Positions 61,950 through 62,033 of a DNA stretch of 64,000 bases are shown here, one piece after another. This DNA comes from Escherichia coli 042 (lineage in GTDB: Bacteria; Pseudomonadota; Gammaproteobacteria; Enterobacterales; Enterobacteriaceae), in the NCBI RefSeq assembly GCF_000027125.1, contig NC_017626.1. One strand, written 5' to 3'. Both the position numbers and the translations under genes were made by a program. Under the pieces are notes generated by a model that was not told where the DNA came from, did no database searches, and saw nothing but the letters and a program-made list of their open reading frames with translations. Every line of letters starts with the position of its first letter. Position 1 is the first letter of the stretch.

Positions 61950-62033
61950 ATTTCTGTGTCATGATAACCCCGTTATTAGCCTTTTATCGTCTTGTTTATA
62001 TTTTTTGGGCCGGCATGATGCCGGCTTTTTTTA
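61950..62033 (+). ncRNA. rseX: candidate small RNA (RseX-like) ending in a strong intrinsic terminator
   Basis: Forward-strand hairpin GGGCCGGCATGATGCCGGC plus TTTTTTT at about 62005..62033 with no upstream forward-strand CDS; location between yedR and the porin gene matches where I recall rseX in E. coli; 5' end is a guess. Confidence 0.4.

Follow-up and report, generated by a model that had tools for sequence, protein, structure and literature searches.

The small RNAs MicA (ompA), MicC (ompC), MicF (ompF) and RybB are short Hfq-dependent RNAs with an intrinsic terminator that base-pair to mRNAs of outer-membrane proteins in the region where translation starts. The gene rseX, which was reportedly predicted in 2002 and characterised in 2006, adjoins a porin gene, as do micF and micC. 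RseX has been described as a 91-nt RNA lowering OmpA and OmpC (PMC7648144), and it has targets in common with other porin-repressing Hfq sRNAs (PMC8313858). According to Douchin et al. (2006), as summarised in PMC8313858, it was found as a multicopy suppressor of RseP loss, the K-12 RNA acts through Hfq (for Hfq see also PMC11979758) and 5' RACE points to a primary transcript. Additional direct targets are fimB and ihfB, and Northern evidence for the K-12 transcript is likewise available (PMC8313858). Whereas sigma-E induces MicA and RybB, and MicF and MicC are OmpR-dependent, no inducer is known for RseX, which H-NS silences (PMC8313858).

The terminator part of RseX alone (RseX+52) represses fepA, which needs the terminator loop, Hfq and RNase E and apparently proceeds without base pairing (PMC11979758). 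SdsR and ArrS resemble this 3' part of RseX in repressing fepA through their terminator loops (PMC11979758), but they have no sequence relationship to RseX.

In the analysis below, identity, boundaries, hairpins, synteny and conservation come from our own comparisons; Hfq dependence, targets and H-NS silencing are taken from the literature.

Identity and boundaries of the locus

The window is the whole 64,000-nt stretch of E. coli 042 DNA that was analysed. A sequence-only reading of it had proposed an RseX-like sRNA at 61950-62033, and had named an Rfam/Infernal scan as a check. When the region 58000-64000 was scanned with a permissive threshold, rseX was found: RF01401 (rseX, Hfq-binding RNA) matched at 61943-62032 (+) with 97.8 bits against a gathering score of 50 (E-value 3e-13). 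The match spans model positions 1-94 of 94 and is thus full-length, and it was recovered again when the whole 64-kb window was scanned at gathering thresholds. The Rfam models of MicA, MicC, MicF and RybB gave no match in 58000-64000, and the sequences of these RNAs are unrelated to RseX. Matches to STnc430, RyhB, Bp1_781 and Esr41 (13-25 bits) were far under their thresholds and reflect a resemblance to the terminator hairpin only.

The features needed to place the gene are the following.

61943..62032 (+): rseX sRNA gene, 90 nt here and 91 nt in K-12 (RF01401 match and b4603 alignment)
61413..61715 (-): drpB (yedR), next gene upstream, with transcription directed away from rseX (NCBIfam NF038392 DrpB, 151.6 bits against 50)
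62344..63459 (+): intact 371-aa general porin of the yedS locus (open reading frame), 311 nt downstream of the rseX terminator

In K-12 MG1655 the ncRNA rseX (b4603; NC_000913.3, 2033649-2033739, +) is annotated between drpB and the yedS pseudogene. In a pairwise alignment, b4603 falls exactly onto 61943-62032, with one T fewer here in the tail. The window copy is also orthologous in position, with drpB (yedR) on one side, the yedS porin locus on the other and the porin on its own strand; the order drpB-rseX-yedS has been described (PMC7648144). The name and position of RseX given by the sequence-only reading agree with the K-12 annotation, and the full-length Rfam match and the b4603 alignment both support its proposal. 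Its coordinates identified the right locus; they began 7 nt late and ended 1 nt past the T run.

From these results we are close to certain that 61943-62032 (+) encodes RseX, a trans-acting Escherichia sRNA of ~90 nt that depends on Hfq, and that it forms an independent transcription unit. Judged by its sequence, the locus is rseX itself and goes beyond being merely RseX-like. As rseX is a known gene already, there is nothing new in its identity.

The bases 61700-62400 (701 compared) are 100 % identical to those of strain C4 and of eleven more strains among the genomes listed, and the C4 locus has the gene order of the window. In every E. coli record listed rseX is unannotated, and the automatic annotation of NCBI leaves it unmarked in the non-K-12 genomes examined. 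Sequence-only readers will therefore keep rediscovering it.

The earlier description of the surroundings also held: drpB (yedR) lies on the opposite strand, and no + strand coding gene precedes the hairpin. The nearby + strand open reading frames are only 36-54 aa long and have no family match. An ATG-initiated frame of 54 aa (61961-62125) covers the hairpin, which could be read as a small protein with the hairpin merely inside its coding sequence. We give this reading a negligible probability: the frame has no NCBIfam match, the ATG at 61961 lacks an evident Shine-Dalgarno sequence, and the extra T in the T run of K-12 shifts the frame, so that the K-12 product would have a different C-terminus and stop after 42 aa.

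RNA anatomy, terminator and targets

The RseX gene has the layout usual for Hfq-dependent sRNAs, with an intrinsic terminator and U tail at the 3' end and a U/A-rich single strand before the stem. Its parts are listed with RNA positions numbered from 61943.

nt 1-19 (+): U-rich 5' end
61962..61978 (nt 20-36, +): 5' hairpin 1, weak (minimum-energy and centroid folds, Rfam structure line, alignments)
61979..61992 (nt 37-50, +): single-stranded GCCUUUUAUCGUCU, predicted pairing site for the ompA Shine-Dalgarno sequence
61995..62006 (nt 53-64, +): U/A-rich UUUAUAUUUUUU just 5' of the terminator (read from the sequence)
62007..62032 (+): intrinsic terminator with loop UGA, stem-loop 62007-62027 and T7 run 62026-62032

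The predicted fold of hairpin 1 has 7 pairs and a CCC loop here, against 5 pairs and a loop of 6 nt in the Rfam consensus. The GCCUUUUAUCGUCU stretch is invariant in 8/9 E. coli strains; its invariance across species is partly by construction, as the search pattern used for the species scan covers it. UUUAUAUUUUUU appears to be of the sequence type of an Hfq contact site.

The GC-rich hairpin followed by a T run on the + strand, from which the sequence-only reading had started, was confirmed as a 9-pair stem with seven T. It reads GGGCCGGCATGATGCCGGC at 62007-62025, within the + strand sequence TTTTTTGGGCCGGCATGATGCCGGCTTTTTTTA at 62001-62033. The terminator scan gave a stem of nine pairs (six of them G-C) with a 3-nt loop at 62007-62027, followed by the T run. 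In the RNA the hairpin corresponds to nt 65-85, and the U run (nt 84-90) starts within its 3' arm. Folded alone, the hairpin has -14.3 kcal/mol. It is the only terminator-like site in 61400-62400; the loose pattern is expected 0.7 times per kilobase in shuffles. A strict count across the window, with 8 perfect pairs, missed this hairpin because its outer pairs are G-U, and so yielded no usable background number. The terminator core GCCGGCATGATGCCGGC is invariant in 16/16 aligned Escherichia sequences.

The whole 91-nt stretch folds with -19 kcal/mol (z -2.13; 7/200 shuffles equally good), which is only moderately better than shuffles. No covariation was found for either hairpin in the aligned Escherichia sequences, in which the stems are nearly invariant, and two variants of hairpin 1 among them each break a pair. 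The hairpin pattern alone is not significant, and the locus rises above chance because of the full-length Rfam match and the conservation across the genus.

The window version shares with K-12 RseX the drpB-rseX-yedS locus, the length and the two-hairpin layout. From nt 28 through the terminator stem the two are identical, with no difference in the predicted ompA-pairing stretch, in the U-rich stretch or in stem and loop of the terminator hairpin. They differ by eight substitutions (nt 6-9 are TGAT here and ATTA in K-12; the hairpin 1 loop bases 61966-61969 are AACC here and GCTT in K-12), by the one T fewer in the tail and by the -10 and -35 hexamers.

Duplexes of RseX with the K-12 ompA and ompC sequences were scanned in short windows. 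An ompA site in RseX had been predicted earlier (Guillier 2006, as cited in PMC8313858). In both the window and the K-12 version, nt 37-50 pair with ompA -22..-7 over the Shine-Dalgarno sequence, within a duplex of -18.0 kcal/mol. With ompC, the duplex had -19.7 kcal/mol in the version of the window (nt 22-43 against -28..-5) and -17.1 kcal/mol in that of K-12. The stronger ompC duplex arises because the loop AACCCC complements GGGUU of the ompC ribosome-binding site. The same RseX segments form background duplexes of -20 to -24 kcal/mol at random sites of the 64-kb window, compared with which the -18.0 kcal/mol of ompA is no better. Since the energies are unspecific, the target assignment rests on the published experiments with the K-12 version; the computation is compatible with the published targets without establishing them.

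Whole-length duplexes of RseX with the ompA, ompC and porin leaders were unrealistic end-to-end pairings and were replaced by the short windows. A predicted pairing of the RseX terminator stem with porin codons 3-11 (-26.8 kcal/mol), which had hinted at a tie to the neighbouring gene, was rejected as chance, since at least ten sites in the window score -29 kcal/mol or better, and also because the stem would have to unfold.

In the proposed mechanism, a weak sigma-70 promoter in a very AT-rich intergenic region would be kept silent by H-NS, and the GC-rich hairpin with its U run would terminate the transcript. Once made, RseX would pair imperfectly with the translation-initiation regions of the ompA, ompC, fimB and ihfB mRNAs, and this pairing would block ribosome binding and lower the levels of the target mRNAs. 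The 3' terminator part would repress fepA separately, by a route seemingly not needing pairing. As the predicted ompA-pairing stretch and the terminator are identical to those of K-12, we infer that the rare version carried by the window behaves like the K-12 version.

Conservation, promoter and the two versions of rseX

With a 91-nt query, rseX was found in 4879/5426 complete E. coli genomes, in one copy, and is absent from about 10 %. The matching places number 4882; two are on records labelled as plasmids, and at least one genome has two copies. Rfam scores of 86.7-95.2 bits were obtained for E. albertii, E. whittamii, Escherichia sp. E1V33 and Escherichia sp. MOD1-EC7003, and two more genomes labelled E. 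coli carry rseX with scores in the same range.

A pattern scan of one genome per species gave 37 loci, of which nine were scored with Rfam and six, all Escherichia, were rseX. The matches in Pluralibacter, Snodgrassella and Paenibacillus were rejected by the Rfam scoring, and the remaining matches outside Escherichia are presumably chance. An exact pattern is blind to diverged copies, and the scan is not a demonstration of absence outside Escherichia.

Conservation was expressed as mean pairwise identity across seven lineages.

rseX, all 90 nt: 0.92
rseX without the 22-nt search pattern: 0.90
100 nt upstream of rseX: 0.675
100 nt downstream of rseX: 0.742

Identity is thus higher within the RNA body than in its flanks, in favour of selection acting on the RNA.

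In E. coli P276M (locus L009, about 490-500), rseX has lost 7 nt of the predicted ompA-pairing stretch and another 3 nt ahead of the terminator; on this sequence it is probably a natural loss-of-function version.

The window carries a rare version of rseX, found in about 3 % of E. coli. The 150 bp of 61826-61975 occur in two very different forms in E. coli: identity to the window reaches at least 99 % in 147 genomes and 90-95 % in 139, but only 60-80 %, typically about 77 %, in 4590. Of the E. coli genomes with a match to 61826-61975, about 94 % have the ~77 % form. At the variable 5' positions (nt 6-9 and the hairpin 1 loop), agreement with other Escherichia lineages is more frequent for the window than for the K-12 type. 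For intergenic chromosomal DNA of a single species, two forms of 61826-61975 as divergent as these suggest an old import by recombination, connected with the variable porin locus.

The rseX promoter was placed by counting back from the annotated +1 and by alignments.

61908..61936 (+): inferred rseX promoter, with -35 CTAAAC (61908-61913), a 17-bp spacer and -10 TTCAAT (61931-61936)

At the equivalent positions K-12 has TTAATC (-35) and TACAAT (-10). TACAAT is found in K-12 and in 7/7 further E. coli strains aligned, and TTCAAT is found again in lineage SCPM-O-B-8794. Losing the A at the second -10 position is expected to weaken a sigma-70 promoter. The window version, with T for A at this position, may be even less expressed than that of K-12.

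Promoter prediction upstream of the hairpin, another check named by the sequence-only reading, gave nothing: the consensus scan found no sigma-70 promoter above threshold on the + strand before rseX, in the window and in K-12 alike. This result fits a weak promoter silenced by H-NS (PMC8313858) and is no argument against the gene. The intergenic region has 28.7 % G+C, with 200-nt windows down to 21 %, and so low a G+C content fits H-NS binding.

The weak promoter raises the question of a decaying, non-expressed relic, carried along with the polymorphic porin locus. Several observations would agree with it: the inferred -10 and -35 are poorer in the window version, rseX is missing from the tenth of complete genomes noted above, the 7-nt deletion of P276M shows that the gene can be lost, and even in wild-type K-12 RseX is undetectable, being present in hns mutants and more so in hns stpA mutants (PMC8313858). 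We consider a relic quite improbable, as the gene is an island of conservation between faster-evolving flanks in at least five species-level lineages of Escherichia, which is unexpected for a neutral relic. In addition, the terminator and pairing stretch are identical to those of the K-12 version, which has been shown to work, and TTCAAT is shared with SCPM-O-B-8794.

A near-consensus sigma-70 promoter-like site on the - strand was seen at 61935-61962 (ATGACA-16 bp-TATAAT, 11/12 matches), directed towards drpB. Two bp of its -10 (61935-61940) are shared with the inferred rseX -10, and its -35 falls inside rseX, at nt 15-20. K-12 has the site too, and most of the aligned Escherichia sequences keep both hexamers; a site of this quality is reached in 7.2 % of shuffles of the AT-rich region and is only suggestive. 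It could be the promoter of drpB, with a leader of ~215-235 nt, competing with the rseX promoter.

A reading in which the rare version differs functionally from that of K-12, with a preference shifted towards ompC, and in which, separately, silence comes partly from promoter occlusion by this - strand site, is in our view unlikely. Anything mildly new is confined to the two forms in which promoter and 5' end occur and to the overlapping promoter-like site of the - strand. The published experiments used the common K-12 form only, and a comparison of both forms could be a cheap way to seek the trigger of RseX expression.

The porin gene and other genes of the window

The porin gene downstream is annotated as 'porin' in strain C4 and as the yedS pseudogene in K-12. 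Its product scores 414-450 bits with the OmpF, OmpC and PhoE models, under each curated cut-off, and is therefore a general-porin paralogue distinct from these. Further strains carry the gene intact, frameshifted or with an internal stop.

The region 62180-62400 (~165 nt before the porin ATG and the first ~55 coding nt) has 0.93-1.00 identity among E. coli, E. albertii, E. whittamii and two further Escherichia species, exceeding that of the drpB coding sequence (0.89). Such identity points to either a tightly constrained regulatory leader or a recent exchange between species.

The position of rseX, on the same strand as the porin and 311 nt from it with no gene between, raises the possibility of an attenuator or leader terminator in a long porin 5' leader, with the short RNA as a by-product of premature termination. 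The near invariance of 62180-62343 across Escherichia, as a sign of constraint on the region upstream of the porin, would suit such a leader. We nevertheless rate it as very improbable. The 100 nt directly past the terminator are poorly conserved (0.742), unlike a functional leader, and two promoter-like sites (62157-62184 and 62223-62250, 9/12 matches) lie between terminator and porin. The hairpin is strong and has a 7-U tail, K-12 keeps rseX intact although its porin is a pseudogene, and the published action of RseX is in trans on unlinked genes (PMC8313858, PMC11979758).

At Rfam gathering thresholds, further RNA genes of the window are DsrA (102.5 bits) at 53521-53607 (-), C0465 (100.3 bits) at 1663-1740 (+) and three tRNAs at 19955-20254 (-).
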